Source: Candidatus Tenderia sp. (lineage in GTDB: Bacteria > Pseudomonadota > Gammaproteobacteria > Tenderiales > Tenderiaceae). From it: 64,000 nucleotides of DNA. Shown piece after piece: positions 39,953 to 59,294 of the stretch. The notes under the pieces are model-generated. The model saw only the letters and a list, made by a program, of their open reading frames with translations. It did not search any database and had not been told where the DNA came from. A program made the translations under genes and the position numbers. Every line of letters starts with the position of its first letter. Within the stretch, counting starts at the first letter, position 1. The stretch spans positions 72,912 to 136,911 of the forward strand of contig JANOSY010000031.1 in NCBI GenBank assembly GCA_031416075.1. Reading direction: 5' to 3'.

Positions 39953-40669
39953 TTAGAGATGCAGCCCACACTCCGCTTTGGGGGTGTCGATCCAACGGCC
40001 GCTGCGGTCATCGCCCGGCTTGGTGCAGTGTGTGCAGCCGATGGAGGAGTACCCCTCGGCTACTAATGGATGAAACGGCAGTTGGTGATCGCGGATGTAG
40101 GTATCACGCTGTTCTTTGGTGACGTCGATAAGGGGATAAAATTTGATGATACCGCCACGGTATTCAAAAACATCCAGCGATGAGCGATGCTCGGTCTGCC
40201 AGCGCATCAAGCCGGAGACCCACACCTTGAAGTTCTTCTTGATCTCCTGCAACGGCTCAACCTTATTGATGGAGCAGCAGAAGTCAGGGTCTGTTTTCCA
40301 GGTCTGATCCTTGACGGTGTACTCATGTTTCCACGCCTCGGCACGTACATCCTCAACCTTAAGATGGTAAAGCTCAGTGAGTTTGGCCTTATACTCCAGC
40401 GTCTCGGAAAAATGGAAACCAGTATCAACAAAATGGACCTTCTGCTGTGGCGCAACCGTTGCGAACAGGTGCAGCAAAAAGGCGGAGTTGGCGGCAAATG
40501 AGGAGGTGAGCATCACCTCCTGCTCAGCAAAGTCATGATAGAGCGCCCTGACACGCGCTTCCGGGGTTAAGTCACGGTAGCGGGTATTGAGTTCGTCAAT
40601 GACGGCCTCTACGCTCAACCCGTGCACTGTTTTCTCAACGGCGGCTGTCATCATGGCATAGGATTCCAT
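39953..40669 (-). CDS. cysH: thioredoxin-dependent (P)APS reductase, Fe-S APS-reductase type
   Basis: SSF, DTGFHF.ET, CCSINKVEPL, SIGCTHCT, ECGLHL. Confidence 0.9.
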   Translation of the reverse strand: MESYAMMTAAVEKTVHGLSVEAVIDELNTRYRDLTPEARVRALYHDFAEQEVMLTSSFAANSAFLLHLFATVAPQQKVHFVDTGFHFSETLEYKAKLTELYHLKVEDVRAEAWKHEYTVKDQTWKTDPDFCCSINKVEPLQEIKKNFKVWVSGLMRWQTEHRSSLDVFEYRGGIIKFYPLIDVTKEQRDTYIRDHQLPFHPLVAEGYSSIGCTHCTKPGDDRSGRWIDTPKAECGLHL

Positions 40670-40796
40670 ATTATTTAAACGGGTTACGCTGCAAGGTTAG
40701 CGTCGCAATGTATATAAAATTACACTATATGAAATGTCAGGCGTTATAAATTAAACAGATATAATATAGCCACCGGCTATTAGGCTTTTGCAAATA

Positions 40797-41102
40797 CTAC
40801 GGTTTAACAGGGTCTCTATCGCTAACAAACAGCTGCTGGTAGTAACCAAGCTGACGCCGTAAAACCTCCCGTTCAACCGGCCGAAATATCTCATCCACCA
40901 CGGTAAATTGGAGCCTCTCAACAACAGCATCGGGGGACTCTGTTTGCCAGGGGATGATGGTGAGCCCCTTCGGCAATTCACTACTACCAAATATGCTTAT
41001 CCCCTTTTTAATCTCCATCACCTCTTCCGCTGGCGCTGTAGTAACCACACCCGCCATTATGAATAGTAGAAAGATCGGGGCCAACCTCAGTCGCACCATC
41101 AT
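40797..41102 (-). CDS. small secreted protein (GltF-like position)
   Basis: Signal peptide, SIFGSSELPKGLTIIPWQ, PVEREVLRRQ; overlaps the upstream TPR gene. Confidence 0.65.
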   Translation of the reverse strand: MMVRLRLAPIFLLFIMAGVVTTAPAEEVMEIKKGISIFGSSELPKGLTIIPWQTESPDAVVERLQFTVVDEIFRPVEREVLRRQLGYYQQLFVSDRDPVKP

Positions 41103-41728
41103 CTATTGGGCCCTGTTGTTGCTGCAGGCGTTTTAAGGCGCTGAGTCAGCTCTGCAATCCACATGGAGACCTGAGCATCATCATTGGAGGTCATAAATTG
41201 ATAACGGATGTAGTGCTGTAACGCCTTTTCGCCCTCAAACAGATAGAGGTCATAAAGAATGCCAAGATTCAGGTAGGCATCGGCATACTCTTCATCCGCC
41301 GCAATGGCACTCTTGTATGCAGCCAGTGCTTCGTTGAAACGTCCACGCTCACGGTAGACCATGCCAAGACGATTTTGGGCTACAGCACTTTTAGGATTCA
41401 GCGCCACCGCCTTTAACAACGCTTCCTCCGCCTCATCGAGGCGACTCATTCTGTGATAGAGAATGCCCAGATTGACATAAGGACCGGAATAATCAGGATG
41501 GCGCTCAATAAAAATATTGAGTTCTTTAATCGCCAGCGGATAGTTACCCTCGCGGATGCTGGTGAGCGCCAGATCATACTCCTGTTTCTGCAGTTCAAGC
41601 TGTCGTAACTGCTCCGCCGTTAAAGGTATAGGCGCTGCATCACTCTGCTCAATCGACGTTGTTGCACATCCACTCAAGTACAGCCCCAGCAAGATTGCCG
41701 CCACCGCTTTACTGCAACGCTTCAACAA
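41099..41728 (-). CDS. TPR lipoprotein (GltE/AglT-like)
   Basis: Lipobox LSGC; 3-4 TPRs (NLGILY, NRLGMVYR, AYLNLGILYDLY). Confidence 0.8.
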   Translation of the reverse strand: MLKRCSKAVAAILLGLYLSGCATTSIEQSDAAPIPLTAEQLRQLELQKQEYDLALTSIREGNYPLAIKELNIFIERHPDYSGPYVNLGILYHRMSRLDEAEEALLKAVALNPKSAVAQNRLGMVYRERGRFNEALAAYKSAIAADEEYADAYLNLGILYDLYLFEGEKALQHYIRYQFMTSNDDAQVSMWIAELTQRLKTPAATTGPNR

Positions 41729-44504
41729 TGCTGGCCCCTTTTTCAGATTTTGAATACCGTACCGGCAATAACTCTTTGAGCTTGCCGTAGCTCTTTTTCA
41801 CCCAGGTATCGTAAACGCCGCTGGAAACACGCTGGGTATTTGACTCAAGAATCGCAATGGCCTTCTCCTCAAATGGAAAGGCCTGCTCTTCAAGCATGAT
41901 GTTGTACTCCTCCAGCTCATCCCGCCCCAACTCTTTGGGCCGTTCGGACTCCATCAAGTTTTTACTGAACTGGTAATAAATTTCACCTATGCGATAGGTA
42001 GAGGCTGTCACCACGTCAGAGACACTGTATGTGGCCGCCTGGTTATAGGCGCTCAGTGCATCTTCCATGCGCTCTTTTTTTATCAGCAGATTTTTGGCCA
42101 ACGGCTCAACCAGTTTAACGCTCTGAAATGCACTCAACTTTCCCTCTGCCATATCCAGGGCCGCCTGTGCCACAAGGTATCGGCTTCGATCGGTATGCCC
42201 AGGGCGATCCAGCTCAACATCCATCAGCTGTGTTGTTATAAAATTGGACCGTGCAGTCTGCCCCAGTGCCAGGTAAAGCTGGCTCAGGCGATAACGTGCC
42301 TCGATCTGCTGACTGTAAGGCTCTGCAAATTGCAGCAGATAAAACTCATACACATTGGCGCTGCGGTCGAGCTGTCTGGCCTTTTCATAAAGCTCGGCTG
42401 ACTGCCACGCGGCCTCCCTTTTTACATCCACTGAGTGGTCGGCACGGGCGATTTTCTCATACTCTTCCGCGGCCTGAACCCCTTTGCCAGACTCCATGTA
42501 GACCAGTGCCAGTTTAAAGGGCAGCTCCTGCTGCAGCCCATGCTCTGGATAGCTTTTTCGGAAATGTTCCAGTGTTGTGATCGCTGCATCCCACGCCTTC
42601 ATCTCAATCAGGACTGAGGCCGCTTCATATTCTGCCTGTATGCGAATATCCGCCGCTGGGGCAACGGCGGATATTCTCAGGTAGTCATCCACCGCTGCGG
42701 TCATGTTGCCCACCGCCTGTTTCTCTTTTGCCTGTTTGTAGATGGAGGCTGCCAGCCACTCAAACGCCACCGGCTTAACACTTCCTTTACTTCGCGCCAG
42801 TGCTATCGCCTGCTGATATGAACGTTCAGCGTTGCGGTACTCTTTCTGCTCGTAATAGCCGTGGGCATTCACCGTCCACGCCGCCTCAAGCAACTCAGGC
42901 GCTGCATTCTCACCCATGGTGATTACGCGCTGGGCCAACATCTGTGCCTTATCGAACTCTTTGGCACCGTAGGCCTCTTGCGCCAGAGTGGTCATGATCG
43001 TCGCCATGCGGCTATCGTCTGGATAACGCTCGGCATACTGCAATAGATTGGCAGTCTGTTTATCACTCCACTCTTTCTGTGTCTCCGGGCCGATCGTTTT
43101 CAGTAGTTCGCGGTAGGCCAGGATGGCGGCGTAACCCGCCTCCTGAGAGTTGGTGCTGGCAGGAAACTCGTACGCAACACGTTCATACTCTTTGCTGGCC
43201 TCGGCGTAACGTTTGCCCTCGTAGAGCATGTCCGCCAACAGGTAGTGGATCTTGGCCTCATCTTTGTCATTGGGCAGATCCCGCAAATAGGCGCGATACC
43301 AGTTCTCTGCCAGATTGTAATCGGACTCACGTTTCTCTCTCTGCGCCACCGCATGGTAATACTGGGTAATATCGGTCAGCGCCAACCGCACATTGGGCAT
43401 CAACTGGGCGCGAACTTTATCGTTGTAATTTATCCACAGACTACTACTAGGGCCATAGACCTGAACAAAGTGCTTTTTAGCACTCAATACCGCATCAGGC
43501 TTCTCTGCCAGGGCAAAGATATCAAACAGTTTCAACTTGAAAAATGCCGCCTGCGGCTCCTTCAGATAACGGACAGAGTAGGTTGTGTAGATGTTCACCG
43601 CGTCCTGATAACGCTTTTGGCGCAGATAAAAATCGGCCAACGTCTGGTAGATCACGTGGTCGTAGTTTTTGCGGCCACGTTTGGCAATCTGTGCCTCGAT
43701 GCGATCGACACTGTTGACGTATGAGAAGACCAGCGCGACAGCGTAGAGGGTATCGTCGATCAGCTCCTGATCCGTCTGCCCCACAGGTAGCGCGGCAAAC
43801 GGGTCTCCATCCAGCTCCAGTGGTACCAATTTAAGATCGAGAAGGGAGAAAAACGATACCAGCGCCTGGTCAAACTGGTCCAGCTTCAACATATTCCAGC
43901 CATGTTTATGCAAGGCCAACTCATAAAAGCGGGATGTTTCACCAAGCTCCACCACACTATGGAACACCCTGGCCGACGCTTCGTACTCACCATCCACAAA
44001 AAACAGCTCACCGCGACGGAACTGCACCTCGGCATAAAGTGGGCTACTGGGGTACTCTTCTGCCAGCCTTGCCAAGGCTGCCATTGACTCATCCACCATT
44101 CCCAGCCGTTCATAGGCCTGGGCCAGTTGGTAGAGCACCTGATCATTACCAACAAAATCGGGGTAACTCTGGAGCAACTCCTTATATATATCAATGGAGA
44201 CCTGATACTCCTTAATATCACCAGCACTTAATGGCGTGACGGTTTTGACCTCTTTGTCCAATCCGGTCTCCAGCTCCAGATCGGCCAGCCGCTTCATGGC
44301 TCGGGCACGAAAACGGTTATCAATATCCTGCTCCATCGTCGAACGGTAATATTTCATGGCATCGTTGCGATTCACCTCAACCGGTGTATCAACATCAATC
44401 ACCACCTTGGAACGCTCCATGCTCCCTAACGTCAACTCCTTTGAGCCACTACAGGCGACCAGTAACAGGGTCGCCAGGACGAGCAGGGATATACGACGCA
44501 TCAT
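41709..44504 (-). CDS. large TPR lipoprotein (GltD/AgmU-like)
   Basis: Lipobox LVAC; many TPRs; C-terminal EYNIMLEEQAFPFEEKAI. Confidence 0.8.
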   Translation of the reverse strand: MMRRISLLVLATLLLVACSGSKELTLGSMERSKVVIDVDTPVEVNRNDAMKYYRSTMEQDIDNRFRARAMKRLADLELETGLDKEVKTVTPLSAGDIKEYQVSIDIYKELLQSYPDFVGNDQVLYQLAQAYERLGMVDESMAALARLAEEYPSSPLYAEVQFRRGELFFVDGEYEASARVFHSVVELGETSRFYELALHKHGWNMLKLDQFDQALVSFFSLLDLKLVPLELDGDPFAALPVGQTDQELIDDTLYAVALVFSYVNSVDRIEAQIAKRGRKNYDHVIYQTLADFYLRQKRYQDAVNIYTTYSVRYLKEPQAAFFKLKLFDIFALAEKPDAVLSAKKHFVQVYGPSSSLWINYNDKVRAQLMPNVRLALTDITQYYHAVAQREKRESDYNLAENWYRAYLRDLPNDKDEAKIHYLLADMLYEGKRYAEASKEYERVAYEFPASTNSQEAGYAAILAYRELLKTIGPETQKEWSDKQTANLLQYAERYPDDSRMATIMTTLAQEAYGAKEFDKAQMLAQRVITMGENAAPELLEAAWTVNAHGYYEQKEYRNAERSYQQAIALARSKGSVKPVAFEWLAASIYKQAKEKQAVGNMTAAVDDYLRISAVAPAADIRIQAEYEAASVLIEMKAWDAAITTLEHFRKSYPEHGLQQELPFKLALVYMESGKGVQAAEEYEKIARADHSVDVKREAAWQSAELYEKARQLDRSANVYEFYLLQFAEPYSQQIEARYRLSQLYLALGQTARSNFITTQLMDVELDRPGHTDRSRYLVAQAALDMAEGKLSAFQSVKLVEPLAKNLLIKKERMEDALSAYNQAATYSVSDVVTASTYRIGEIYYQFSKNLMESERPKELGRDELEEYNIMLEEQAFPFEEKAIAILESNTQRVSSGVYDTWVKKSYGKLKELLPVRYSKSEKGASIVEALQ

Positions 44505-46372
44505 GGATGCTCCTTCTGTATATGTTGGGCCTCATCATAAATCTGCGCCACGGCAAACAGTGCCTGACTTCGATACGCTTCAACCTGAAATTTCACACCC
44601 GCCACGGCTGATTGTGCCAAGTGCTGCAAACGCGCCTCTGACGCCTGTGCCAGATTTTTTGTCTGTTGTTGCAGGCGTTCTGTCTGATGACGTCGTGCCT
44701 GCAACGTTTGGCGATAATGGTCAAAATTGCCGGGGCTCCGCTCAAGAACACTGTTCAACCGCTGCTGCTGGCCACGACTCTCAGCCAACCTCTCATCCAG
44801 CTGCTGTAGCTGCTGTTTTGCCCGCCATAAACGTGCCGGATACTCACTCTCCAGCTGCCAGAGTAGCCCTCCTTGCAGCACGGTGAGTTTACGCCGCTGC
44901 TTATCAATCTCTACGCGCCCCTCAAGCTGCTGCAACCGTTTTTCAACCTGGGTCAGTTGTACCCAGCGCTGCTGCTCTTCCGCTGTTGTCAGGTCCATGG
45001 CATCTTCCTGCGCCTCGATCCCCTGTAACCTCTGGGTGTGGGCATCACGTTGCTGCTGAAGTCTCTCCCCTTCGAGCTTGGCCAGCGCCTTCAAAATGGT
45101 TGGCAGGCGTCTTTCGTAGCCGGTTTGGCGCGTATCTACCATCGCCTCATAGGCCTCCAGATCATCCCGCCAGCGGGATAAGTTCGTCTCCAGATGGAGC
45201 AGATCACGATAGTTGCGTAACGCCTCCTGAAATTCATGGCCCGCCATCACGCGGTAGAGGTAAGGTGTCAATGTCGTCTCCGGGGTCAGCTCGGTACGCC
45301 AGTGCCAGCCTGTTTCAGCTGCGCCACGTGGGTCCACTAATTCGTGTGCCAGGGCGGTAAAATTCATGCCGGCAATAATTCCTTCCAGGGTTGTCAGCGC
45401 TTCGTTATAGTGCTCAATCGCTGTTTGATAATGATCCAGCGCCTGCTGTCGTGCGCCAAGTTGATTGAAGGTATAGGGTACCGCTAAAAGCCCCTCCAAT
45501 ACAGCGGGGTCTGAAACATTCCGTTCAATCAAAGGCAGCCAGATCGCCAACGCCTCTTTGCCGCGCCCCATGCCAGACTCTACCCATCCCAACCCCAACA
45601 GCGCCTGGCTGACAAACGGGCTGTTAAGCCGCACATGTTCAAACCAGCCCTTGGCTGCAACAAACTCTTTTTTTCGTAAGTGGCTGTACCCTAAAGCAAT
45701 TCTGCTTTTATCGTACAGCTCAGTACGTCCTGGCTCACCGCTATCACCCTGTTGCAGCAGCGCTGCCAGCAGGGGCCGGCCCTGCTCATCACGTCCCTCG
45801 CGGATATGGTGAAGTGCCAGATTGTATTGGGCAAAACCGCTATCCAGGGAGTTGGGCCGATAACTGGCCAACTGTGCCGCTGCTTCGGTATAGAGACCTC
45901 GCTGGGCCAGCAGGATACTGGTTAACTGCTGACGTTCATCCTCCTGCCCGGTTGGCAACTGGGTATCGAGCCGTTGTAACAGTTTTGCCGACTCAGTGTG
46001 GCTACCACTCTTGTAATGGATGTTTGCCAGCGCTAACCAGACACGGTTGCGCTGTGTTGGGGTGAGCTGGTTTTTAAGCAGTCGGCTAAAGATCGCTTCG
46101 GCATTTTTTTGCATGCCGTAGGAAAAATAGAGTCCCCCCAACAGCAGCTCCGCCTCAACCCCCTGATTAGGCAGACGCCCTACCTGTTGCGCGGCACTCA
46201 GCTGGATGATGGCGGAAAAGTAGTTCTGCTGATAAAAATCAAACAACACCTCTCCATAAAAGGGGTCTTTGACTACCGCTGGGAGCGCCTGCTCTGCCTT
46301 AACGGCAGCAGTCACCGCCATCAAACAGGGCAACAGGCAGAGCAAGACAGAACCTTTCACCCCTACTCCCAA
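44501..46372 (-). CDS. secreted TPR + coiled-coil protein (GltC-like)
   Basis: Signal peptide, YGEVLFDFYQQNYFSA, ALLGLGW, long Q/L-rich coiled coil. Confidence 0.75.
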   Translation of the reverse strand: MGVGVKGSVLLCLLPCLMAVTAAVKAEQALPAVVKDPFYGEVLFDFYQQNYFSAIIQLSAAQQVGRLPNQGVEAELLLGGLYFSYGMQKNAEAIFSRLLKNQLTPTQRNRVWLALANIHYKSGSHTESAKLLQRLDTQLPTGQEDERQQLTSILLAQRGLYTEAAAQLASYRPNSLDSGFAQYNLALHHIREGRDEQGRPLLAALLQQGDSGEPGRTELYDKSRIALGYSHLRKKEFVAAKGWFEHVRLNSPFVSQALLGLGWVESGMGRGKEALAIWLPLIERNVSDPAVLEGLLAVPYTFNQLGARQQALDHYQTAIEHYNEALTTLEGIIAGMNFTALAHELVDPRGAAETGWHWRTELTPETTLTPYLYRVMAGHEFQEALRNYRDLLHLETNLSRWRDDLEAYEAMVDTRQTGYERRLPTILKALAKLEGERLQQQRDAHTQRLQGIEAQEDAMDLTTAEEQQRWVQLTQVEKRLQQLEGRVEIDKQRRKLTVLQGGLLWQLESEYPARLWRAKQQLQQLDERLAESRGQQQRLNSVLERSPGNFDHYRQTLQARRHQTERLQQQTKNLAQASEARLQHLAQSAVAGVKFQVEAYRSQALFAVAQIYDEAQHIQKEHP

Positions 46373-46920
46373 CTGCTAATGGTAAATTCAGGCTGCTGTT
46401 TGGCTGCGGAGTCACTGATCCTAATCTCGATAAATTGAGGCTCCAGCCCCTTTTCAAAAAGATAGCTGGCGGCACGGCGATAGTCGCGGCCATTAGGACC
46501 CTTGCCGCTAAACAGGGCGACCAGCTCATGTTGGCCACTGCGCAGGTTTTCAATATGGAGCCGCTGCACACCGCCCTTGGCCAACGCGTTCACTTCACGT
46601 TCGGTATAGAGGTAGTGGGTCACCGATTTACCATCGATTTTCAACTCGACCGCGTCAAGCGCAAAAAAGAGCCCACTGTTCATGGCAAGAAAAATGGTGG
46701 TCTGGGTGGTGGCAGGAAAGAGTAGCTCCTCTTCCAGAATAAACAGTTCACGGTTGAGATCAAGCACCTCTTTTTTTAGATCCTCCACCTGCTCACTCAG
46801 GCCACCTGCTGCGGCTCTACTAACCTCCTCCGCCATCACTATCGACATACTCACAGGCAACAGCCAGAGCAAAAACAGCCCCGCCAACAACCGTTTTATT
46901 GCACCCTTCATCACATCCAT
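46363..46920 (-). CDS. secreted coiled-coil + beta-sandwich protein of unknown function
   Basis: Signal peptide, LKKEVLDLNRELFILEEELLFP, HYLYT.RE..AL..GGVQRL; no HTH. Confidence 0.75.
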   Translation of the reverse strand: MDVMKGAIKRLLAGLFLLWLLPVSMSIVMAEEVSRAAAGGLSEQVEDLKKEVLDLNRELFILEEELLFPATTQTTIFLAMNSGLFFALDAVELKIDGKSVTHYLYTEREVNALAKGGVQRLHIENLRSGQHELVALFSGKGPNGRDYRRAASYLFEKGLEPQFIEIRISDSAAKQQPEFTISSWE

Positions 46921-46930
46921 TCCTACAACC

Positions 46931-48523
46931 TTAAGACGGGGTTAGAATTTTGCCATTCACAATCGGTGTAAAGGCGGAGAGGCTGTCACGCATCGCCACA
47001 CCGCCCAAACCATGTTTCGGAAAGCGGGTGGCAAAGTTACCCTGCTCACCATGCAGTGCCATGTAGTTCAGGATGACTGTCTCCACTAGCAGATTGACAT
47101 TATTGGCCGCCGGCGTAGCCGATGTTTCGACCGATGCATCAGGGCGGAACCAGCCAATCTGTTGGTGGCGCGCCTGCTGTGTCACCGTATCGCCCATCAA
47201 AACCGGGCGTCCGGCGGGATTATATACCAGGAAAAACGAGCTGGCGGTATCCGAATTATCCCCGGTCCAGACACCTTTACCGCCCCCCTCTGCTGAGTTG
47301 TCCAACATACCGTTACTGAAAACCGAACCATCACTACAGACGTACAACATAAGTGGCACACCGATACGCGCCGCATATTCGAGGCAGGCACCGATACAGC
47401 GCCCAGCGCGCAGATCACGCACTTCCCCCGCTGCCCGGTCGCCCGTATGGTAGTCATAACCACCCAGTTCAATAGTCCCGGCCCCCGCATTACCATTGAT
47501 CACCAGCTTCATCACTGAAGCGGTTTTGCGGAACTCGCCGTTTTTCATCTCATCGACACTAAAGATAGGACCGACGATGTCAGGGTCAATCTCTGGATTC
47601 AACATCGCAGGATTACCGTAACGATCCACCAGATCCGCAGCCTTCACATATCCACAATCGATCAGATCCTTAATTACCGCATCAGCGGTGACCTGGGTAT
47701 TAACCTTTTTTAACTTCATGGAACTGATACGTTCGATGGACTCCAGTACCGCCACCGCATCCTCCTGGCTCAACAGTCCCACCAGTTTGCCGGTATCCAC
47801 CAGCCCCGTCACGTCGCTGGGGCGATCAATTTTGGTGGGGCGAACGGCAGGGTTCATCATGGTTGCCGGTGCCATGGAGTTGCCGCCCGAGTCGGAGTTG
47901 CGCGAACCGATCAGCGTCAGCAGCGCCCCATCGGCCCCGGCCCGGTTAATGCCATACATTGGATTGTGTGGATTGTTGCCCGTATCGTTTTCAGATCGGG
48001 CCGGGAGCACAGCGCCGTTAATTTTGGCGGCTGTTGCTGGTGAAACCTTCTCCAGTATGCCACGCAAAAACGCACTCTCAGAATGGAATGCCAACCCCAA
48101 GGTGGTGTTGGCAAAGGGGAGCCCTGTCGCCAGATTGGTCAACGACGGAATCATATCCCCCGGTAACCCCAATTTGCTGTAACCCGCCGTGGTCAGAAAA
48201 TCGAGCTGCCCGCCCTGTTTGCCTACCAGTACATTGGAACCGGCAATGTTGGCACCACCGGCCAGATCAAAACAGATAAACGGGATCTTGCCAGCCCCCT
48301 GGGTGGCGATACCACAACTGGTTTTAAGTGTCTGCAGGTCCGCCGACAGCGCCGCCCGCGCCTCACGTGGGTTGGCAAACAGCCCGAAAATTGTCGGCCC
48401 CACCACCAGACCAAGGCCGGAGGTAAGCCCGTAACCAAGAAAATCCCGCCGTGTTACGGGCCGTTGATGGTCCGCATGTAACAGCGGTGTATCGGGTGAA
48501 AGTGGAGTCTTTTGTCTGGTCAT
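46931..48523 (-). CDS. Tat-exported DUF1501-like protein
   Basis: Twin-arginine TRRDFL + hydrophobic segment + ARA; FDLAGGAN, GGYDYH, CSDG motifs. Confidence 0.7.
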   Translation of the reverse strand: MTRQKTPLSPDTPLLHADHQRPVTRRDFLGYGLTSGLGLVVGPTIFGLFANPREARAALSADLQTLKTSCGIATQGAGKIPFICFDLAGGANIAGSNVLVGKQGGQLDFLTTAGYSKLGLPGDMIPSLTNLATGLPFANTTLGLAFHSESAFLRGILEKVSPATAAKINGAVLPARSENDTGNNPHNPMYGINRAGADGALLTLIGSRNSDSGGNSMAPATMMNPAVRPTKIDRPSDVTGLVDTGKLVGLLSQEDAVAVLESIERISSMKLKKVNTQVTADAVIKDLIDCGYVKAADLVDRYGNPAMLNPEIDPDIVGPIFSVDEMKNGEFRKTASVMKLVINGNAGAGTIELGGYDYHTGDRAAGEVRDLRAGRCIGACLEYAARIGVPLMLYVCSDGSVFSNGMLDNSAEGGGKGVWTGDNSDTASSFFLVYNPAGRPVLMGDTVTQQARHQQIGWFRPDASVETSATPAANNVNLLVETVILNYMALHGEQGNFATRFPKHGLGGVAMRDSLSAFTPIVNGKILTPS

Positions 48524-48542
48524 GGTTATCTCTCAATCCCTG

Positions 48543-51062: not shown

Positions 51063-52288
51063 TCCCCCTTACAGTAGACAGCAGTATCGGAAAATACCTG
51101 CTTGAGGTTGTAATTACTGCCCTTGAAATTGGCGATAATGGTATCGACTATGCTGCGATCAGCACTGTTACCCGGTTCACGAAAGCAGACTGTTGCAAAG
51201 ACCTTTTTTACCTGACAGCGGGCAAAGGCCTCACTGTTGGCCAACTCCATCCCCAACGACTTGGCACCAGTGCCAGAGGCAGGCAACGATAACTGCTGAG
51301 TGTCCCAACCCAACCTTGCATTGGGGCCATGACGCCAATAGTTGTGCCAGCCATCATCTGCTGTGACATACCCCGGTTTGAAATTACTGGCATTGATCAG
51401 ATTTTTAGCCTGCACACGACTCCCCGTTTTAGGGTCAACCGTGCCCACACCGTTGTAGACCAGTTTGCCATTGGCGGCATCGGGGTCGATCTCAACGTTG
51501 TAATCGTAATTATAATAGGCAAACGCTTGAGTCATGGGGTCCATGCCCGCATGGCAACCGACACAGGCGTTAAGATAGATCCGGCTATCACCGCCCGGAC
51601 TGCGCGACACATCCTGGCGCACACGATCGGGCGAACGTGTCACATCTTTGACCTGTTCCATGTCATTACAGAGATGGTTCATAAACGTAAAGCGGAACAT
51701 GGCCCGATTAGTACCGTCAATAAAAAAAGCCTTGGCCGCCGCGCGACTGGTCATAACACCCGCCGTGGCGGCAACAGGCAGGCCGGTGACGACAGATTGT
51801 GTGGTTCGGACCAGCCCACTCTTAAGATCAAGACCACGATCATCCAATGCCTCGTAGTGGGCATTACTGGTATTGGCGTACGCTGGCAGCGTGAGTGTAT
51901 TTTTGCCCACATAAAGAATGTCGTCATACAGAATGCGGCGGAAATCAAGCTCATCACGCACCACCCCAATCACCGTGGCGGTATAATCATTCAGTGGTGC
52001 AAAGAGTGTTTGCGCCTCATTAGTCCACGGGGTGACAAAATTTTTCAACGTCACATTGTAGAAAGAGGGGTGCTCAAGTGCGCGTTGGGCCGCCTTGTTG
52101 TAATCACCTGCTGCAATAAATCCCGCCATTGCATCAAGCGTAGCGGCATCGGCAGGCACGCCGGCAACACGGTCATGAATCCGCTTGGCCTGCTCCCTCG
52201 GCCCTGCCTCAACCACTGCAACGGCGACCAGTAATGCACAAAATAGAGATGCACGAAATGACAGATTCAACACTTTTTTGCAACCCAT
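51059..52288 (-). CDS. secreted monohaem cytochrome c protein (DUF1588/DUF1585-like)
   Basis: Signal peptide, AGVMTSRA, TNRA, CVGCHAGMDP, FARCQVKKVF. Confidence 0.75.
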   Translation of the reverse strand: MGCKKVLNLSFRASLFCALLVAVAVVEAGPREQAKRIHDRVAGVPADAATLDAMAGFIAAGDYNKAAQRALEHPSFYNVTLKNFVTPWTNEAQTLFAPLNDYTATVIGVVRDELDFRRILYDDILYVGKNTLTLPAYANTSNAHYEALDDRGLDLKSGLVRTTQSVVTGLPVAATAGVMTSRAAAKAFFIDGTNRAMFRFTFMNHLCNDMEQVKDVTRSPDRVRQDVSRSPGGDSRIYLNACVGCHAGMDPMTQAFAYYNYDYNVEIDPDAANGKLVYNGVGTVDPKTGSRVQAKNLINASNFKPGYVTADDGWHNYWRHGPNARLGWDTQQLSLPASGTGAKSLGMELANSEAFARCQVKKVFATVCFREPGNSADRSIVDTIIANFKGSNYNLKQVFSDTAVYCKGE

Positions 52289-52522
52289 AATATTTTAATA
52301 GCAACCATTCTAACGCCCCTCCAGCGCCGCCCATTCTATAACATGGATGGGCCACTGGGATAATTATTCATCCCCTTGAATACATCACAAAACACTTATA
52401 TTCCATGATTGTACGTGACAAAAGATTTTATATTTTTACCATCGCAAGATAGCAATACTTTATAATCACTCTCAATAAAAAAATTAAGTGTCTCTGTTCC
52501 GCGACACACCAGAGTTGAAGGC
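52289..52522. promoter_or_regulatory. AT-rich divergent promoter region of the envelope locus
   Basis: 234-bp AT-rich gap between divergent operons, with TATAAC and TATAAT hexamers. Confidence 0.5.
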
Positions 52523-55150
52523 ATGGGTAGAATTAAACATCAGATAACCAAGTGGGTTGGCCGCGCTATTACGTTGCTGATAGCCACATCCGTAATCAGT
52601 GGCTGTCTATCAAAGACAGAGACCAGCGACCCCGTTGTCATTGATTTCCCCGTTGCCTATGTCAAACGCCCTATCCCCGTCAACAACCAGAACCAGCCCC
52701 GCAATCTGGATATACGGGCGTTGGATGATTTTAATGCCGGGGCAGACCTTTACCTGAAGGCGCGCTCCACCGCCGGTGCAGCAGAGCGCAATATCACCGC
52801 CACATTCACACAGGGCATGGGGGACGTTAAAGATATTGAGGTCTCATACGATGGTGGAAAACTCCTCTTCAGCATGCGTGCCGCCGAAATTGAAGATGCT
52901 GATGAAGACGATCAGCCAACGTGGAATATCTGGGAGTATACAATCGCTGAAAACAGCCTACGCCGCATTATCACTTCCGATATCACCGCCGAAGCAGGCG
53001 AAGATGTAGCCCCCCACTATCTACCCGATGGCCGCATCATATACTCATCCACACGCCAGCGCCAAAGCGGGGCCATCCTGCTTGATGAAGGCAAACCGAA
53101 GTTTACCGCAGGGCATGAAGGAGGTAACGGACCGGCCTTTTCACTCCATGTAATGAATAGTGATGGCAGCGACATTCATCAGGTATCGTTTAATCAGAGC
53201 CACGATTTTGATGCCAGCGTAATCGCCTCCGGCGAAGTTGTATTCAGCCGCTGGGACGCTATGGGGGAGAACAACGCTATCAACCTCTACAAAATAAATC
53301 CCGACGGCACCAACCTGCAACTATTATATGGTGGCCACAGCCATGATAGCGGCAACCCCAACATCGACATACAGTTTACAGCGCCGCGTGAACTGCCCGA
53401 TGGTCGACTCTTATCCACCCTGTTACCCTTTCGTGGCAGCACACTGGGTGGCAATATTATTGCGATCGATATCAACCACTACGGCGACAACCAACGTGCG
53501 CTGGATAATCTGCAATCACTCTCCACCACCACAGCACAGAGCTCACTTGTTAATGATGTAACACATAACGGTAACGCTATTTCACCTGGTGGCCTCTACC
53601 GCTCTGCCACACCCCTGTGGGATGGCACTGGACGGCTATTGGTGAGCTGGAGTCCATGTCGACTGATCAACGGCAATGCCATTGTTACCTGTAATAAGAC
53701 GTTACTGGCACAATCCAATACAGTAGCCGCACCACCACTTTATAGTGTGTATATCTATGATCCCATCAAACGTACACACGCTCCACTGGTGGTCCCCGTG
53801 GAGGGCACCATCATTGCTGATGCGGTGATCGCCCAACCTCGCCCACGCCCTACAGTCATTATCGACAGCCAGATCAATAGCAGTCTCGACCAAATACTGG
53901 CCAATGAAAATAGCGGCATACTTCACATCCGCAGTGTTTATGACTTTGATGGCAATGACAACGCTACGCCCAACATTAAAGCAGTGGCCGACCCTCTATT
54001 AACCAGTGCCGACAATCGCCCGGCCCGTTTTTTACGTATCATTAAAGGCGTAGCACTACCCGATCGCCAGGTATTACAAATCCCCAACAGTGCCTTTGGT
54101 GTGACCGGCAGATCAATGCGTGAGATCATCGGTTACGCAACCATTGAACCCGATGGCTCGGTGATGGTTAAACTACCGGCCAATGTGCCCCTGACCCTTG
54201 ACGTCTTGGATAAAAATGGCCGCAGCATCACCCCGCGTCACCAAAACTGGCTACAGCTGCGCCCCGGCGAAACACAACATTGTAACGGCTGCCATACACA
54301 CAGCAGCGGCATACCTCATGGCCGTAATAATCTACCGACCACAGTGAACAGTGGCGCTACTACCAGCGGTCTCCCGTTTCCCAATACCAACACCACGCTG
54401 GTTGCACAGATGGGTGAAACCATGGCACAGAGCCGCATCCGCATCAGCTGCGCCAGCAACTGTGCTGCACTCACCCCCAGTGTCGATATTCTGTTTGACG
54501 ATCACTGGACCAACACCTCACAACGGACAAAAGATAGCAGCATCGCTTATCGCTATGCCGATCTCACCACCGCCATCCCCGTCAGCAGCAGCTGTATCAA
54601 CCAGTGGAACTCACTCTGCCGCACTGTCATCAATTACGAAACACACATTCATCCACTCTGGAACAAAGATCGTGGTGGTGATAGCTGTATCCTCTGCCAT
54701 ACCAGCACCAACAGTAGCGCCATGCCTCAGGTGCCTGCAGCCCAGCTCGACCTGAGTGACGGTCCCAGCGGTGACGTGGCCACCAACTTCAACAGCTACC
54801 GTGAGTTGCTGTTTGCTGACAATGAGGTGGAGCTGGATTTGGTTAATAATATTCTGCGCGACCGTTTGGTAGCGGACACCGATAACAACGGCAACCCCCG
54901 TTTTGAAACAGATGCTGATGGCAATCAAATCCTCGACAACAGCGGCCAACCTATTCCCATCATGATACCGGTCCCGGCAAACGGCCCGGTGCTCTCTGCC
55001 AACGGTGCCAATGGCAGTCTGTTTTTCACTAAATTTGATGTCGGCGGCAGCCATGCGGGGCGACTCAGTGCCGCAGAGTTACGGCTGATTGCCGAATGGA
55101 TTGATATTGGTGGCCAGTACTACAACAACCCTTTTGATGTCCCACAATAA
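52523..55150 (+). CDS. HzsA-like lipoprotein: TolB/PD40 propeller + hydrazine-synthase-alpha middle domain + two haem c motifs
   Basis: Lipobox ISGC; SYDG.KLLFSMR, PHYLPDGRIIYSSTR, REIIGYA.IEPDGS...PAN, RPGE...CNGCH, CILCH...IAEWIDIG. Confidence 0.8.
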   Translation: MGRIKHQITKWVGRAITLLIATSVISGCLSKTETSDPVVIDFPVAYVKRPIPVNNQNQPRNLDIRALDDFNAGADLYLKARSTAGAAERNITATFTQGMGDVKDIEVSYDGGKLLFSMRAAEIEDADEDDQPTWNIWEYTIAENSLRRIITSDITAEAGEDVAPHYLPDGRIIYSSTRQRQSGAILLDEGKPKFTAGHEGGNGPAFSLHVMNSDGSDIHQVSFNQSHDFDASVIASGEVVFSRWDAMGENNAINLYKINPDGTNLQLLYGGHSHDSGNPNIDIQFTAPRELPDGRLLSTLLPFRGSTLGGNIIAIDINHYGDNQRALDNLQSLSTTTAQSSLVNDVTHNGNAISPGGLYRSATPLWDGTGRLLVSWSPCRLINGNAIVTCNKTLLAQSNTVAAPPLYSVYIYDPIKRTHAPLVVPVEGTIIADAVIAQPRPRPTVIIDSQINSSLDQILANENSGILHIRSVYDFDGNDNATPNIKAVADPLLTSADNRPARFLRIIKGVALPDRQVLQIPNSAFGVTGRSMREIIGYATIEPDGSVMVKLPANVPLTLDVLDKNGRSITPRHQNWLQLRPGETQHCNGCHTHSSGIPHGRNNLPTTVNSGATTSGLPFPNTNTTLVAQMGETMAQSRIRISCASNCAALTPSVDILFDDHWTNTSQRTKDSSIAYRYADLTTAIPVSSSCINQWNSLCRTVINYETHIHPLWNKDRGGDSCILCHTSTNSSAMPQVPAAQLDLSDGPSGDVATNFNSYRELLFADNEVELDLVNNILRDRLVADTDNNGNPRFETDADGNQILDNSGQPIPIMIPVPANGPVLSANGANGSLFFTKFDVGGSHAGRLSAAELRLIAEWIDIGGQYYNNPFDVPQ

Positions 55151-55151
55151 G

Positions 55152-55886
55152 ATGTATCGTCTGCTGCCATCACTGCTGATGTTGCTGGTCTGTGCAACAA
55201 CCGTAGCGGCTAACGAACAGAACCGTGTCAAAATCGCCGATCCTTTTATCGAACTACGCAGCGGTCCTGGGCGTGGATTCCCTATCTTCTATATTGAAGA
55301 GCGTGATCAATGGATCAACATCATCAAGCGCAAAACCGACTGGTTCAAAGTAGAAATTAACAATGACACCCAAGGTTGGGTCCACTACGATCAGCTGCTG
55401 TTAACACTCATGCCTGACGGAGAGCACACCCGAATTCACGAATCTGACAGTGAGGACTTTCTCCGCCGCCGTACTGAGGCAGGGTTGACTGGCGGGAAAT
55501 TCAGCGGCTCAGAGGTGATCACCCTATACGCTGGCTACGCCTTCACCCGCAATATCTCCGCTGAAGTTGCCTTATCACAAGCACTTGGCTCCGTATCCAG
55601 CAAACAGCTTGTTAACGTGCGGCTCATTCATCAACCGATCCCTGAATGGCCACTCTCCCCCTTTTTTGCCATGGGGGCAGGTAACCTTGCAAGCAAAGCC
55701 AGCGCCACACAGGCACAGGCACAAGATCGTAGCGACAGCATCGCACACGTCGGCATCGGGCTACGCAACTACCTAACGCGCAACTTCATGGTGCGCGCTG
55801 AATACAACCAATACGTCGTCTTCTCCAGCGACGACTACAACGAGGACCTTAGGGAATGGAAAGTCGGTCTCGCCTTTTTTTATTGA
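55152..55886 (+). CDS. SH3b domain + outer membrane beta-barrel protein
   Basis: Signal peptide; LRSGPG, W.KV...GWV; SPFFAMGAG, VRAEY, terminal AFFY. Confidence 0.78.
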   Translation: MYRLLPSLLMLLVCATTVAANEQNRVKIADPFIELRSGPGRGFPIFYIEERDQWINIIKRKTDWFKVEINNDTQGWVHYDQLLLTLMPDGEHTRIHESDSEDFLRRRTEAGLTGGKFSGSEVITLYAGYAFTRNISAEVALSQALGSVSSKQLVNVRLIHQPIPEWPLSPFFAMGAGNLASKASATQAQAQDRSDSIAHVGIGLRNYLTRNFMVRAEYNQYVVFSSDDYNEDLREWKVGLAFFY

Positions 55887-56518
55887 TCAGCAGGTCGCTA
55901 CTCTGCACGCTGCCGTTACTGTGCTGGCAAAATATTGCAACAGCCACAGAAACAAGTAACGGCGAGCCATTGATTCAACCCCAGATCAAACCCAAACCCG
56001 CCAAAATGGCCAAAATTGATAGCGAAAATTTTGAAGTGGGACTCTACACTGGCCTGCTCAGCATTGAAGACTTTGGCAGCAACTCTGTTCGTGGCATACG
56101 CTTTGCTTATCACGCCAGCGAAGATATTTTCATCGAAGCCGCCTACGGCAAAAGCACCACAGAACAGACCAGCTATGAACGGCTGTTAGGCTCCGTTACC
56201 CTACTCACCGCCGAAGAGCGGCAGCTCACCTACTACAATCTCTCCCTGGGTTTCAATCTATTGCCGGGGGAATCCTTTATGGGGAGCAGCTATACCATCC
56301 ATACCGACCTCTATCTGATTGGTGGTATTGGCAATACAAAATTTGCTGGCGATAACCGCCGAACCCTCAACCTCGGTTTTGGCCACCGTATGATCATCAA
56401 TGACTGGCTGGCACTGCACCTGGATGCCCGCAACCATATCTTTGATATCGATCTACTCGGCCAACAGAAGACTAATCATAATTTAGAGCTACATACCGGG
56501 CTCACACTCTTTTTCTAA
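55856..56518 (+). CDS. outer membrane beta-barrel protein (GltA/GltB-like family)
   Basis: Signal peptide; IDSENFEVG, LSIEDFG, NLLPGE, terminal TLFF. Confidence 0.78.
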   Translation: MESRSRLFLLISRSLLCTLPLLCWQNIATATETSNGEPLIQPQIKPKPAKMAKIDSENFEVGLYTGLLSIEDFGSNSVRGIRFAYHASEDIFIEAAYGKSTTEQTSYERLLGSVTLLTAEERQLTYYNLSLGFNLLPGESFMGSSYTIHTDLYLIGGIGNTKFAGDNRRTLNLGFGHRMIINDWLALHLDARNHIFDIDLLGQQKTNHNLELHTGLTLFF

Positions 56519-56530
56519 ACGGAGAGGCAC

Positions 56531-57040
56531 ATGTTTATAAAACGTACACTACTACTGGGCTGGCTCTTCTGCCTGACATTAGGACTTGGCACATATGCCC
56601 TGGCCAACAACGATACCCAGCCTGTTCCAGCACCCGACTTCACATTAAAAAGTAGCAGCGGAAAAAACATCAAACTCAGCGAGCTACGGGGACAGGTGGT
56701 CATGGTCAACTTCTGGGCATCGTGGTGCAGCCCCTGTCTGCAGGAGATGCCCATGCTCAATCAGCTCTACAAAAAATATCAGCCACTCGGTTTCACACTA
56801 CTGGGGGTCAATGTTGAAGAGGACAGTAACGACGCCATCAAATGGCTAAAAAAAATTAACATCGATTTTCCTGTTTTATATGACACTGAAAACAGCGTCT
56901 CAGAGCGCTATAGTGTCAGCATCATGCCAACCACTATCATTGTCGACCGCAGTGGCAACGTACGTCACATCCATCATGGCTATACACCCGGCGTTGAAAA
57001 AAGCTATCAAAAACAGATTCGTGCCCTGCTCAAAGAGTGA
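56531..57040 (+). CDS. TlpA-family periplasmic thiol-disulfide reductase
   Basis: APDFTL, VNFWASWCSPC..EMP, MPT. Confidence 0.92.
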   Translation: MFIKRTLLLGWLFCLTLGLGTYALANNDTQPVPAPDFTLKSSSGKNIKLSELRGQVVMVNFWASWCSPCLQEMPMLNQLYKKYQPLGFTLLGVNVEEDSNDAIKWLKKINIDFPVLYDTENSVSERYSVSIMPTTIIVDRSGNVRHIHHGYTPGVEKSYQKQIRALLKE

Positions 57041-57279
57041 ACAGAGAGATGCTCAAAGCTGCACTGTTACCCATATTGGCCATCGGCATAATGATCACGC
57101 TCAGCGGCTGTACATTAAAACCTTGGGTAAAACCCTACGAACGGGCCAATCTGGCCGACCCTATCATGAGCTTTGACCGTAACCCAATCTCATCAAGCTA
57201 TCTCAACCACGTATACGAGGCACGTGAAGGGGCGCGTGGTGCAGATGGCGGCCAAGGGGGCGGCTGTGGTTGCAATTAA
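57037..57279 (+). CDS. DUF4266 lipoprotein
   Basis: Lipobox LSGC, VKPYER..LA, C-terminal GGGCGCN. Confidence 0.9.
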   Translation: MNREMLKAALLPILAIGIMITLSGCTLKPWVKPYERANLADPIMSFDRNPISSSYLNHVYEAREGARGADGGQGGGCGCN

Positions 57280-58462
57280 CAAAAGTAGAGATGCAGCGGT
57301 GCAACACAACATCAACCAGTCAGGACAGGGGCAGATCAAACTAATCTGGATGCTCGCTGGCACCCTCTTCATGGCTGCAGCACTGCCACTCACTGCTGCC
57401 ATTTTGCCAGACGAACGTATTGACGCACTGTTTCACTACTACAATGGTGGCGGCATCACGGTACAAGGTCCTGCACTACAAGCCAGCAAGCAGATTGGCA
57501 ATCACACATCACTCTCTGCCAAATATTATGTTGACGCCATCAGCAGCGCCTCCATCGACGTCGTTACCTCTGCCAGTCGATATACAGAAAAACGTGAAGA
57601 GTACAGCGTCGGCACCACCTATCTGCGCGACAAAAGCACCCTGAGCCTCAATTATAGCAACAGCAAAGAGAACGACTTTATTGCCAACAGTGCCAACTTC
57701 AATATCAGTCAGGATATGTTTGGTGATCTCACCACCCTCTACATGGGCTACTCAAAGGGATGGGATGCAATCTATAAAACAGTGAATACCAACGCTGGCT
57801 TCGACCGTGACCCCAGCTTTGAAAAAGAGGCAGACCGCCAAAAATTTCGCCTTGGTGCCAGTCAGATTATCAGTAAAAACCTGGTCACCAATCTCAACTA
57901 CGAACTCATCACTGACTCAGGCTATCTCAACAACCCCTATCGCACCGTGCGTTTTAGTGATGGTTCAACGCTAGCTGAAGTCTATCCCAATACCCGCTCC
58001 AGCAATGCCATCGCCCTTAGCGCCAACTACTATCTCCCCTACCGTGCCGCACTACACGGCAGCTACCGCTTTTATGGTGATACCTGGGGCATTAGCGCCA
58101 ATACACTGGATATTGGCTACACCCACACCTATCGCGACAACTGGATTGTTGGCAGCCACTATCGCCACTACAGACAAAACCGTGCCAATTTTTATCAGGA
58201 TTTCTTTGACCCCTTTGCCCCACAAAACCACATGGCCCGCGACAAAGAACTCAGCAGCTACAACAGTCAGACCATCGGACTTAATATCAGTTACAACGTG
58301 ATACCACAGGGGTGGCGCATGTTTGATAAAGGCACATTAAATTTCAGCATCGATCACATGCGTTATCAGTATGATGATTTTAGTGACTTGCGTAACCCCA
58401 CGCCCAGTCCTTATGGTTTCTCCGCCAATGTAGTGCAGGTTTATATGTCCGTCTGGCATTAA
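57266..58462 (+). CDS. DUF3570 outer membrane beta-barrel protein
   Basis: YYVDAISSASIDV, S.ENDF, GYLNNPYR, YRFY.DTWGI; start uncertain (GTG 57266 overlapping the DUF4266 end was chosen). Confidence 0.85.
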   Translation: MVAINKSRDAAVQHNINQSGQGQIKLIWMLAGTLFMAAALPLTAAILPDERIDALFHYYNGGGITVQGPALQASKQIGNHTSLSAKYYVDAISSASIDVVTSASRYTEKREEYSVGTTYLRDKSTLSLNYSNSKENDFIANSANFNISQDMFGDLTTLYMGYSKGWDAIYKTVNTNAGFDRDPSFEKEADRQKFRLGASQIISKNLVTNLNYELITDSGYLNNPYRTVRFSDGSTLAEVYPNTRSSNAIALSANYYLPYRAALHGSYRFYGDTWGISANTLDIGYTHTYRDNWIVGSHYRHYRQNRANFYQDFFDPFAPQNHMARDKELSSYNSQTIGLNISYNVIPQGWRMFDKGTLNFSIDHMRYQYDDFSDLRNPTPSPYGFSANVVQVYMSVWH

Positions 58463-58616
58463 AACAGGTGGGGAATTGGTGGTTTTTTTGTGCCAGCCAT
58501 ACCCCCCCTATATAACCAGAAACATCTGACACACCACCTCAACACCCAAACAGATCCCTCTGCAGCCCTTTCACCCGACAACAAAGGGCTAACAATAAGT
58601 GGAACAACCGAATATT

Positions 58617-59294
58617 TTATATCTTCTTTGCCGCCCTCTTGGTTGTCGTTTTTTTACTGCCCACTGTTTTCACCTTGGCCTTGGTTGTTTTAGGCGCTTC
58701 TTTTTTTGGACTTTTCATGATCTGTTTAACAGGCTCTGCCTGTACTTGTTTATCAACAGCGGTTTTTTTATCTTGAACAGATTTTTTATATTTTTCATTG
58801 CCACTTGTATCACCCAGCCAACCAGCAACGATATGCCTTATATCATCCAGCTCATGTTCAATCATGCCCCCTGCCGAAGACAGGGCCTTATGCCCTTTTT
58901 CAACCAACCCTGATGCCTTTGCCAACCGTTGATCAATCTCTTGTTCAGCCATGTGCCAATCCTCATCAGCTGATCCCGCTGAAAAGCCGCGACGTTCTGC
59001 GCGCAAGTAGGCCGCCTCCCGTATCATCTTTTCACGCTCCTCCAGATCAATATGGGCACCAAGGATGGTTTTTTTTGCCGCTTTTCCCAATCCCTTTATT
59101 TTAATGCGCCCCCTGCTAATATCTTCTGAAAACTCGTGCAAATAGGGTGTAACCGTGTCACCAAATTTCTCCAGCGCAAAATCACCAAATTCACGTACAT
59201 TACGGCCAGCAGCCAACATCTGCTCTAAAGCCGTTTTTAAATATGTTTTTGAGTTTCCAGAGGCCAGTTTTTCATCTTGACTATGTTTTCCCAT
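58617..59294 (-). CDS. DUF2934-domain protein with Lys-rich C-terminal tail
   Basis: IREAAYLRAERRGF..G....DW..AE.EI; tail rich in K/T/A. Confidence 0.8.
   Translation of the reverse strand: MGKHSQDEKLASGNSKTYLKTALEQMLAAGRNVREFGDFALEKFGDTVTPYLHEFSEDISRGRIKIKGLGKAAKKTILGAHIDLEEREKMIREAAYLRAERRGFSAGSADEDWHMAEQEIDQRLAKASGLVEKGHKALSSAGGMIEHELDDIRHIVAGWLGDTSGNEKYKKSVQDKKTAVDKQVQAEPVKQIMKSPKKEAPKTTKAKVKTVGSKKTTTKRAAKKI

Follow-up and report, generated by a model that had tools for sequence, protein, structure and literature searches.

A conserved two-armed envelope gene cluster of Candidatus Tenderia that probably unites a GltD homologue and GltA/B-type barrels with haem, flavin and thiol proteins

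Do the two divergent gene arms found in a 64,000-nt stretch of contig JANOSY010000031.1 (C31 in the genome-wide comparisons) of Candidatus Tenderia sp. encode a single envelope system, and from what parts would it be built? The whole stretch is referred to here as the window, and positions are counted within it. The arms comprise 14 open reading frames (ORFs), eight on the minus strand (A1 to A8, from 52288 down to 40797) and six on the plus strand (B1 to B6, 52523–58462). We consider it probable (at roughly 60%) that the 14 genes form one conserved envelope system of four modules, with true GltD and outer-membrane barrel homology. The modules travel together in Gamma- and Betaproteobacteria. 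A scaffold module would consist of the GltD homologue A6, the GltC-like A5 and A7 in the GltE position, with A4 and A8 as proteobacterial extras, and a barrel module of the tandem GltA/B-type pair B2/B3. The TlpA-like B4, the CXC lipoprotein B5 and the DUF3570 barrel B6 would provide a thiol-flavin relay, while a haem/enzyme module would contain B1, A1, A2 and A3, the last predicted to have an alkaline phosphatase-like fold and to be exported by the twin-arginine translocation (Tat) pathway. The features are listed below (aa, amino acids; TPR, tetratricopeptide repeat).

A1, 51059–52288, minus strand: exported monohaem protein of 409 aa, CVGCH at residue 242, weakly PSD2/DUF1585-like C-terminus
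A2, 48543–51062, minus strand: dihaem lipoprotein of 839 aa with a Laminin_G_3 (LamG) domain, lipobox VSGC followed by Asp, haem motifs CGNCH and CSGCH
A3, 46931–48523, minus strand: Tat-exported protein of 530 aa with an RR motif and a predicted alkaline-phosphatase-superfamily fold, member of a family that is distantly DUF1501-like and not represented by a Pfam model
A4, 46363–46920, minus strand: secreted protein of 185 aa, long helix plus beta-sandwich, no family match
A5, 44501–46372, minus strand: secreted TPR and coiled-coil protein of 623 aa, TPR matches, GltC-like position
A6, 41709–44504, minus strand: TPR lipoprotein of 931 aa, GltD homologue with a C-terminal signature
A7, 41099–41728, minus strand: small TPR lipoprotein of 209 aa, generic TPR, GltE position
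A8, 40797–41102, minus strand: small secreted protein of 101 aa, final gene of the left arm
Divergent spacer, 52289–52522: 234 bp between A1 and B1
B1, 52523–55150, plus strand: HzsA-like dihaem beta-propeller lipoprotein of 875 aa, HZS_alpha domain, two CxxCH motifs
B2, 55152–55886 (ORF from 55089), plus strand: SH3 domain and outer-membrane beta-barrel, 244 aa from an internal ATG, first barrel of the tandem pair
B3, 55856–56518, plus strand: GltA/B-type outer-membrane barrel of family TIGR04565 (OMP_myx_plus), 162.7 bits
B4, 56531–57040, plus strand: TlpA/ResA-like thiol-disulfide oxidoreductase of 169 aa, AhpC-TSA and Redoxin matches
B5, 57037–57279, plus strand: DUF4266 lipoprotein ending in CGCN (CXC motif)
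B6, 57350–58462 (ORF open from 57173), plus strand: DUF3570 outer-membrane protein, SSAS and TSAS at the published flavinylation positions

An earlier note on this DNA, made from the sequence alone, had described 14 genes in two divergent, tightly coupled arms. The ORFs were found where it had placed them, with 4-bp overlaps at the A1/A2, A5/A6, A7/A8 and B4/B5 junctions. The remaining junctions range from −31 to +19 bp, with B5/B6 at +70 bp when B6 starts at its internal ATG. Most likely B2 and B6 start at the internal ATGs 55152 and 57350, a correction to a domain list that was otherwise reproduced by the Pfam and NCBIfam searches used for our domain calls and by the motif counts used for CxxCH. 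Export signals were judged by eye from the translations, in which hydrophobic N-termini, lipoboxes in A2, A6, A7, B1 and B5, and the twin-arginine motif of A3 can be seen. The CxxCH motifs are kept in aligned orthologues of A1 (71/71), A2 (72/72 and 74/74) and B1 (68/69 and 69/69). The divergent spacer contains three sigma-70-like sites over both strands, against 1.2 expected, and Rfam yields no match within 40000–59500, spacer included. The flanking genes are unrelated or housekeeping in nature: cysH (39953–40669) on one side, DUF2934 (58617–59294) on the other, with DUF5329 and recJ genes as well.

The co-occurrence of the two arms was determined in 80 genome loci with A3 as anchor. In 70 of them B1 adjoins A1 and is encoded on the opposite strand; these are all of the loci that reach far enough upstream, as the other ten extend no more than 3.1 kb beyond A3 in that direction. 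The complete right arm of six genes occurs in 62 of the 80 loci, and A3 identity exceeds 70% across orders. Furthermore, 151 genomes sampled evenly from the class were scored for A3, B1 and the A6 family. A3 was found in 17, B1 in 16 and both in 14, and the single-marker genomes include one contig-end fragment and one genome that is 73% complete. The A6 family is present in 29 of the sampled genomes, among them 13 of the 14 that have both A3 and B1. The earlier note had named beforehand, as fatal to its proposal, arms that fail to co-occur; the arms do occur together, in 70/70 sufficiently long loci and in 14 of the 19 genomes with either marker. On comparative sequence grounds, we regard the gene cluster as not being a chance arrangement.

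The linkage persists through rearrangement. A4–A8 follow A3 in 28 of the 80 A3-anchored loci, whereas Alteromonas, Paraglaciecola and Ningiella have them after B6 in the opposite arm. A TPR module that stands apart, with MotA/ExbB, two ExbD and TonB_C genes behind it, is found in Gilvimarinus and, as an additional copy, in Microbulbifer. A second set of 80 loci was anchored on A6, and represents the best 80 of at least 589. Of the A6-anchored loci, 51 extend 9 kb or more upstream, and redox genes lie directly upstream in 39 of them: 20 of the 39 run A1-A2-A3-A4...A8-motor (Steroidobacteraceae and others) and 19 run B1...B6-A5...A8-motor (Burkholderiales, Acidiferrobacterales). A8 is kept 3' of A7 in 17/80 A3-anchored loci (E ≤ 1e-5) and in 71/80 A6-anchored loci when the A8 copy of contig C58 is used as query. 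Carriers are widespread among free-living marine and soil bacteria.

The identity of the scaffold was addressed by comparison with the Glt and Nfs machineries of Myxococcota. A GC-rich back-translation of the C-terminal signature of the A6 family (...ERP..L...LEQY..LLEEQA[FY]PFEEKAI...) led to a contig of a Myxococcota metagenome-assembled genome (MAG) and provided the entry to the phylum. The GltE model NF033758 scores 107–184 bits in 44 of 81 Myxococcota genomes, and the protein encoded directly upstream of these matches was taken as the D-position reference; the gltD-E-F-G-H-I order used for this assignment is in part what we presume it to be. Four Myxococcota loci share a common order of a 540–606-aa ORF, a 1066–1150-aa TPR protein, a GltE-like protein, a small ORF and a TonB-C-terminal protein, continuing with a ~330–345-aa ORF and a giant TPR protein. 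This order appears to fit the G1 cluster, and the ORF sizes match those in PMC11761067. Two further Myxococcota loci are of the Nfs type, with tandem TIGR04565 barrels and C-like, D-like (1149–1152 aa) and E-like proteins.

A6 matches the Myxococcota GltD-position protein in BLASTP with 115 bits and E 4e-30 over 862 colinear residues, C-terminal signature included, and comparison of A6 and D-position family profiles (hhalign) gives a probability of 100% and E 1.4e-51 over 857 columns. In the reciprocal direction, three Myxococcota D-proteins searched against the Candidatus Tenderia genome find A6 and the C58 copy first; the C56 copy comes next for two of the three, and no other TPR protein scores better than E 1e-6. 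These alignments identify A6 as a GltD homologue; no GltD model was found in NCBIfam. A Myxococcota GltG-like protein matches solely the TonB-like gene of contig C58 in this genome. B3 belongs to TIGR04565 with 162.7 bits against a 60-bit cut-off. B2 is a partial member at 36 bits, and in Pfam has an OMP_b-brl match of 37.8 bits together with SH3 matches. B3 and B2 are the only clear TIGR04565 members of the genome, with one more match of 21.4 bits on another contig, and the family matches 0 or 1 of 14 control genomes. It also forms the tandem pairs that head the C-D-E genes in the Nfs-type clusters of Myxococcota. Direct BLASTP of the barrels is weak, at E 3e-6 against a 4-sequence set. Taken together, the family assignment points to B2/B3 as tandem GltA/B-type outer-membrane barrels.

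The earlier note had likened the TPR and barrel proteins to Glt components, and had been ready to drop the idea if the similarity proved to be that of generic folds. Given the A6 and TIGR04565 search results, the GltD and barrel homologies are specific. The likeness thus stands for A6 (GltD) and for B3 (TIGR04565 barrel), while that of A7 to GltE is generic and that of A5 to GltC moderate. A complex prediction of B2 and B3 with the TPR part of A5, run without controls, scored 0.01 and weighs neither way on binding. Two NCBIfam models, NF033759 for TraA and NF033757 for CglB, have no match in the genome. In the case of CglB the search is itself weakly validated, since NF033757 matched none of the 14 control genomes.

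Luciano et al. (2011) describe, in the available text of PMC3169522, a proteobacterial core complex of GltC, D, E and G with AglR, Q and S and an extra gene that lacks Myxococcales homologues. The A4–A8 plus motor module appears to fit this description. Like Agl-Glt, Nfs and the core complex, the cluster has a GltD homologue (A6) with a TPR lipoprotein (A7) encoded directly downstream and a TPR protein (A5) upstream; the tandem TIGR04565 pair B2/B3 recalls the Glt/Nfs machinery; and relatives and the C58 paralogue have, as in the core complex, a single operon with one TolQ-like, two TolR-like and one TonB-like gene. In contrast to the Glt machinery, the window cluster has no motor and the genome no CglB match, the GltE likeness is generic, and the module is joined to cytochromes, an enzyme of predicted alkaline phosphatase-like fold and a DUF3570 relay, none of which is mentioned in the available text of PMC3169522. 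Unlike Myxococcus, carriers of the window-type cluster are not known gliders. On a separate locus, L294 (G156:C41), whose contig is assigned to a Myxococcota MAG, a module of proteobacterial and not of Glt type, A5–A8 with ExbB, was observed, with 36% identity to A6; this is either a gene transfer or a binning error.

Motor genes are a regular part of this arrangement in relatives. ExbB follows A8 in 22 of the 28 A3-anchored loci that contain A6, and among the 80 A6-anchored loci ExbB is found in 67 and a TonB-like gene in 59. The order is ExbB-ExbD-ExbD-TonB-like, confirmed by Pfam as MotA_ExbB, ExbD twice and TonB_C. The window copy has lost its motor. Two further A5–A7 sets occur in the same genome, on contigs C58 and C56. 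In the A6-family FastTree, window A6 is placed with the C56 copy of its own genome and with the cluster copy of locus L001, which lacks a motor (support 0.97). The C58 copy is placed with loci L093 and L094, of which L094 is labelled Candidatus Tenderia. The tree includes spurious antisense ORFs (a 25-sequence clade from GC-rich loci and two Myxococcota rows), and was relied on only for the placement of window A6 with L001 and C56.

The two additional sets differ in their surroundings. On C58 (L090:4961–13406) a complete A4-A5-A6-A7-A8-ExbB-ExbD-ExbD-TonB-like set stands alone beside phosphoribulokinase, and its vicinity is free of cytochrome and barrel genes; the A6 of this set shares 80% identity with a locus labelled Candidatus Tenderia. 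On C56 (L091:5050–13832, L092) the third A5-A6-A7 set lies beside type VI secretion genes (ClpV-like AAA, TssG) and BatD, and a motor set is located ~25 kb away on the same contig.

The haem proteins flank the divergent spacer. B1 contains the HZS_alpha middle domain PF18582 (62 bits), and matches 5c2v_A weakly and colinearly with E 1.4e-7. As in HzsA (PDB 5c2v), and colinear with it, a propeller precedes a middle domain that contains the first CxxCH, and the second haem is C-terminal; unlike HzsA, B1 is a lipoprotein, and it scores 54.4 bits with the HzsA equivalog model NF052339, far below the 800-bit cut-off. According to the available text of PMC12758564, none of the HZS_alpha-domain relatives of HzsA has a confirmed function. 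A2 has a Laminin_G_3 domain (74 bits) and no PDB sequence relative at E ≤ 0.1. A1 reaches 19.2 bits with Pfam PSD2 against a cut-off of 25.8, and PF07624 is precomputed for 8 of 120 listed orthologues.

A3 could not be placed by sequence, as no Pfam family, DUF1501 (PF07394) included, was found in 62 diverse members scanned (E ≤ 1), and an A3-family profile searched against PDB sequences gave signal-peptide noise only. An Atlas lead (score 0.92) points to clusters with DUF1501 in 45% of members. The AlphaFold2 model (mean pLDDT, the predicted local distance difference test, 88) was more informative: in VIA, all top 50 matches are alkaline-phosphatase-superfamily chains (Z 8.8–11.6), and a Foldseek search of the same model against the PDB returned nothing at E ≤ 0.001. 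We assign A3 an alkaline phosphatase-like fold on the strength of this model. Residues R25, R26, D180, D357, H359, D398 and D422 are invariant. In Planctomycetes and Verrucomicrobia, PSCyt-PSD cytochrome genes are paired with DUF1501 or DUF1552 genes of unknown function (PMC5615132, available text). The left arm resembles these pairs in that CxxCH proteins, with LamG in A2 and a PSD2-like end in A1, adjoin the Tat-exported A3 with its predicted alkaline phosphatase-like fold; it differs in that A3 has no Pfam match, the PSD2 match of A1 is below cut-off, and the haem protein is encoded by two separate genes. A4, encoded beside A3, is the best-conserved gene of the TPR module, from an 82-member family with conserved motifs and no [S/T]GA[S/T] motif. 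Its AlphaFold2 model (pLDDT 84) matches only generic beta-sandwich structures, with Z ≤ 9.

The three genes at the end of the right arm correspond to a published association. B4 scores 112 bits with AhpC-TSA, 101 bits with Redoxin and 122.6 bits with ResA, the last below its 170-bit cut-off; the adjacent B5 and B6 score 83 bits with DUF4266 and 153 bits with DUF3570 in Pfam. Meheust et al. (2021) report flavinylation-associated clusters of ApbE, DUF3570 and thioredoxin-like proteins together with DUF4266 ('DsbD-type'), a DUF3570 protein shown to be flavinylated at two [S/T]GA[S/T] sites as an ApbE substrate, and a C-terminal CXC motif in DUF4266 (PMC8238504, available text). The window shares with these clusters a row of DUF3570, CXC-ending DUF4266 and thioredoxin-fold genes, and many relatives' clusters also contain ApbE. 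It departs from them in having no ApbE or DsbD, in a B4 that is AhpC/Redoxin (TlpA/ResA-like) rather than PF13899, and in the SSAS and TSAS motifs of B6. Of 165 related loci, 53 contain an ApbE homologue, in many cases located between A3 and A4 or ahead of B1. Hence, the parts list of the earlier note, which included neither a motor nor ApbE, is correct for the window and incomplete for the system, as relatives carry the motor and often ApbE.

ApbE was also observed adjoining stand-alone TPR-motor modules with no DUF3570 in the fetched stretch, at L084:5178–6080, L110, L118 and L130, and at the further loci L131, L135, L148, L156, L157, L165 and L170. This hints at another flavinylated partner.

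How such a system might operate can be proposed by following the published Glt model (PMC11761067). A motor driven by the proton motive force would act via the TonB-like protein on the GltD-like pillar and then on B2/B3, and this action would position, expose or gate the outer-membrane redox set B1, B5 and B6. Electrons may pass among thiols (from DsbD via B4 to B5), the flavin of B6 and the haems of B1, A2 and A1, and could serve the A3 enzyme or a cell-surface substrate. The window copy, if energised at all, would need to draw on one of the two motors that other parts of the genome encode. In Myxococcus, the Nfs system likewise borrows AglRQS. We observed the gene content, homologies, co-occurrence and rearrangements, and infer from them the physical contacts, direction of electron flow, substrate and use of a motor in trans. 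The details of force transduction and electron path are tentative, and we would sooner expect them to need revision than to hold. The roles suggested in the earlier note, extracellular electron transfer or attack on polymers or minerals, are to be read as proposals of the same conjectural kind. A motor-driven mechanism as outlined above would also be compatible with a 2020 preprint, which proposes that the Glt core could suffice for protein secretion (10.1101/2020.07.22.216333, available text).

Several observations weigh against a single system of this type. The complete genome G049 has A3 and B1 and no A6-family match at E ≤ 1e-20, and the A6 family occurs without A3 or B1 in 12 of the 151 sampled genomes; therefore the modules can work apart. 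The A6-anchored loci, being the best-scoring ones, are not a random sample. The GltE likeness of A7 is not specific: A7 scores 37.7 bits with NF033758 against a 225-bit cut-off, other TPR proteins of its own genome score up to 50 bits, and Myxococcota GltE-like proteins match unrelated TPR proteins of this genome first. The model itself does not discriminate outside Myxococcota, as at E ≤ 0.001 it matches 12 of the 14 control genomes, never above cut-off, and it is position and lipobox alone that agree with a GltE assignment. Likewise, the likeness of A5 to GltC-like proteins is moderate and appears not to be specific, with family profiles aligning at a probability of 96% and E 4e-9 over 255 TPR columns (hhalign) and no direct match for A5 in three Myxococcota genomes, tblastn included. 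The B6 sites read SSAS and TSAS and not the published [S/T]GA[S/T]; the first site varies among 86 DUF3570 homologues (SSAS 35, SGAS 26, SNAS 17, TSAS 7, SCAS 1). ApbE and DsbD are not in the window, with one of each elsewhere in the genome (ApbE on C7), and contig C31 has no ExbB, ExbD or TonB-like match, those of the genome being on C58 and C56. Both energisation and flavinylation of the window copy would consequently rest on genes in trans.

Other explanations can also be formulated. The genes could be separate neighbours, with a PSCyt-like/DUF1501-like pair, a flavin module of HzsA-like and DUF3570 proteins and a Glt-core module each working alone, as would suit G049, the 12 genomes with the A6 family only, and the stand-alone TPR-motor sets in this genome, Microbulbifer and Gilvimarinus. 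We find this distinctly unlikely, as the linkage is preserved in three or more gene orders and extends over different orders and classes, and the only clear TIGR04565 barrels of the genome lie in the haem/flavin arm and not beside the other TPR sets. It is more improbable still that the TPR proteins and B4 serve as assembly factors (BamD-, NrfG- or ResA-like) that mature or insert the cytochromes and barrels without transducing force. A6 does have sub-threshold BamD/YbgF-like matches, and the best match of B4 is ResA. ResA is a cytochrome c maturation reductase. A Tenderiales preprint also reads TPR/BamD-like orthogroups as export or assembly factors (10.1101/2022.05.06.490989, available text). 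This role is at odds with the full-length homology of A6 to GltD and with the TolQR/TonB-like motor linked to it in relatives.

A third possibility is TonB-type uptake, in which the motor and the TPR proteins would power the entry of a metal or metal chelate via DUF3570 or the small barrels while the haem, flavin and thiol proteins carry out reduction in the periplasm, comparable to iron or copper assimilation. The ExbB/ExbD/TonB-like genes linked in relatives and the wide distribution of the cluster in free-living marine and soil bacteria agree with such a function, as do 25 DUF3570 clusters with a VIT1 iron transporter for which iron assimilation has been suggested (Meheust et al., PMC8238504, available text). 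However, according to Pfam the 14 genes include neither a TonB-dependent receptor of the plug-and-barrel kind nor an importer of the ABC or permease type, the TPR pillar is of a GltD type that lies outside known Ton systems, and no metal-responsive riboswitch was found by Rfam in 40000–59500. Uptake is therefore unlikely in our view, and one conserved envelope system with a Glt-type scaffold remains the reading we prefer.

No paper was found that describes the whole combination, in a literature search that covered few subscription journals. The available text of PMC8238504 has nothing about this cluster type under TonB, ExbB, TPR or hydrazine, and that of the Tenderia papers mentions other TPR and cytochrome clusters and not this one. 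Of the system that the earlier note proposed as an undescribed one, the TlpA-DUF4266-DUF3570 part is already published. Each module is known as a bioinformatic family; what is new to the literature searched is their union, with a GltD homologue and GltA/B-type barrels in a haem-flavin locus. What the Glt core does outside myxobacteria was described as unknown in 2011 (PMC3169522) as well as in 2020 (10.1101/2020.07.22.216333), in the available text of both. Four modules of unknown role, the Glt core, the DUF3570 relays, the HzsA-like cytochromes and the PSCyt/DUF1501-type pairs, form one conserved supercluster with real GltD and barrel homologies, and each module therefore gains testable partners. 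For the function-less Glt core, these are exported haem, flavin-barrel and thiol proteins. Culturable carriers are available in Alteromonas, Paraglaciecola, Microbulbifer, Piscinibacter and Rivibacter.

It is conceivable, if speculative and on balance improbable, that the Glt core of non-gliding proteobacteria is a device driven by the proton motive force that exposes or gates an outer-membrane haem-flavin set through GltA/B barrels, and that the myxobacterial machines descend from it. The redox set would then be the HzsA-like lipoprotein and the DUF3570 flavin barrel, with the enzyme of alkaline phosphatase-like fold behind them, and CglB would later have replaced the cytochrome cargo.

Two genes in the vicinity of the cluster were also observed. 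A 648-aa FG-GAP repeat protein is encoded on the plus strand at 34047–35993, ~5 kb past the left end of the cluster. FG-GAP proteins adjoin some HzsA-like clusters (PMC12758564, available text); a link to the present cluster is doubtful because recJ and other genes intervene. On the minus strand, at 37899–38981, lies a second alkaline-phosphatase-superfamily gene close to the cluster, whose 360-aa product weakly resembles cofactor-independent phosphoglycerate mutase and has no family above cut-off.

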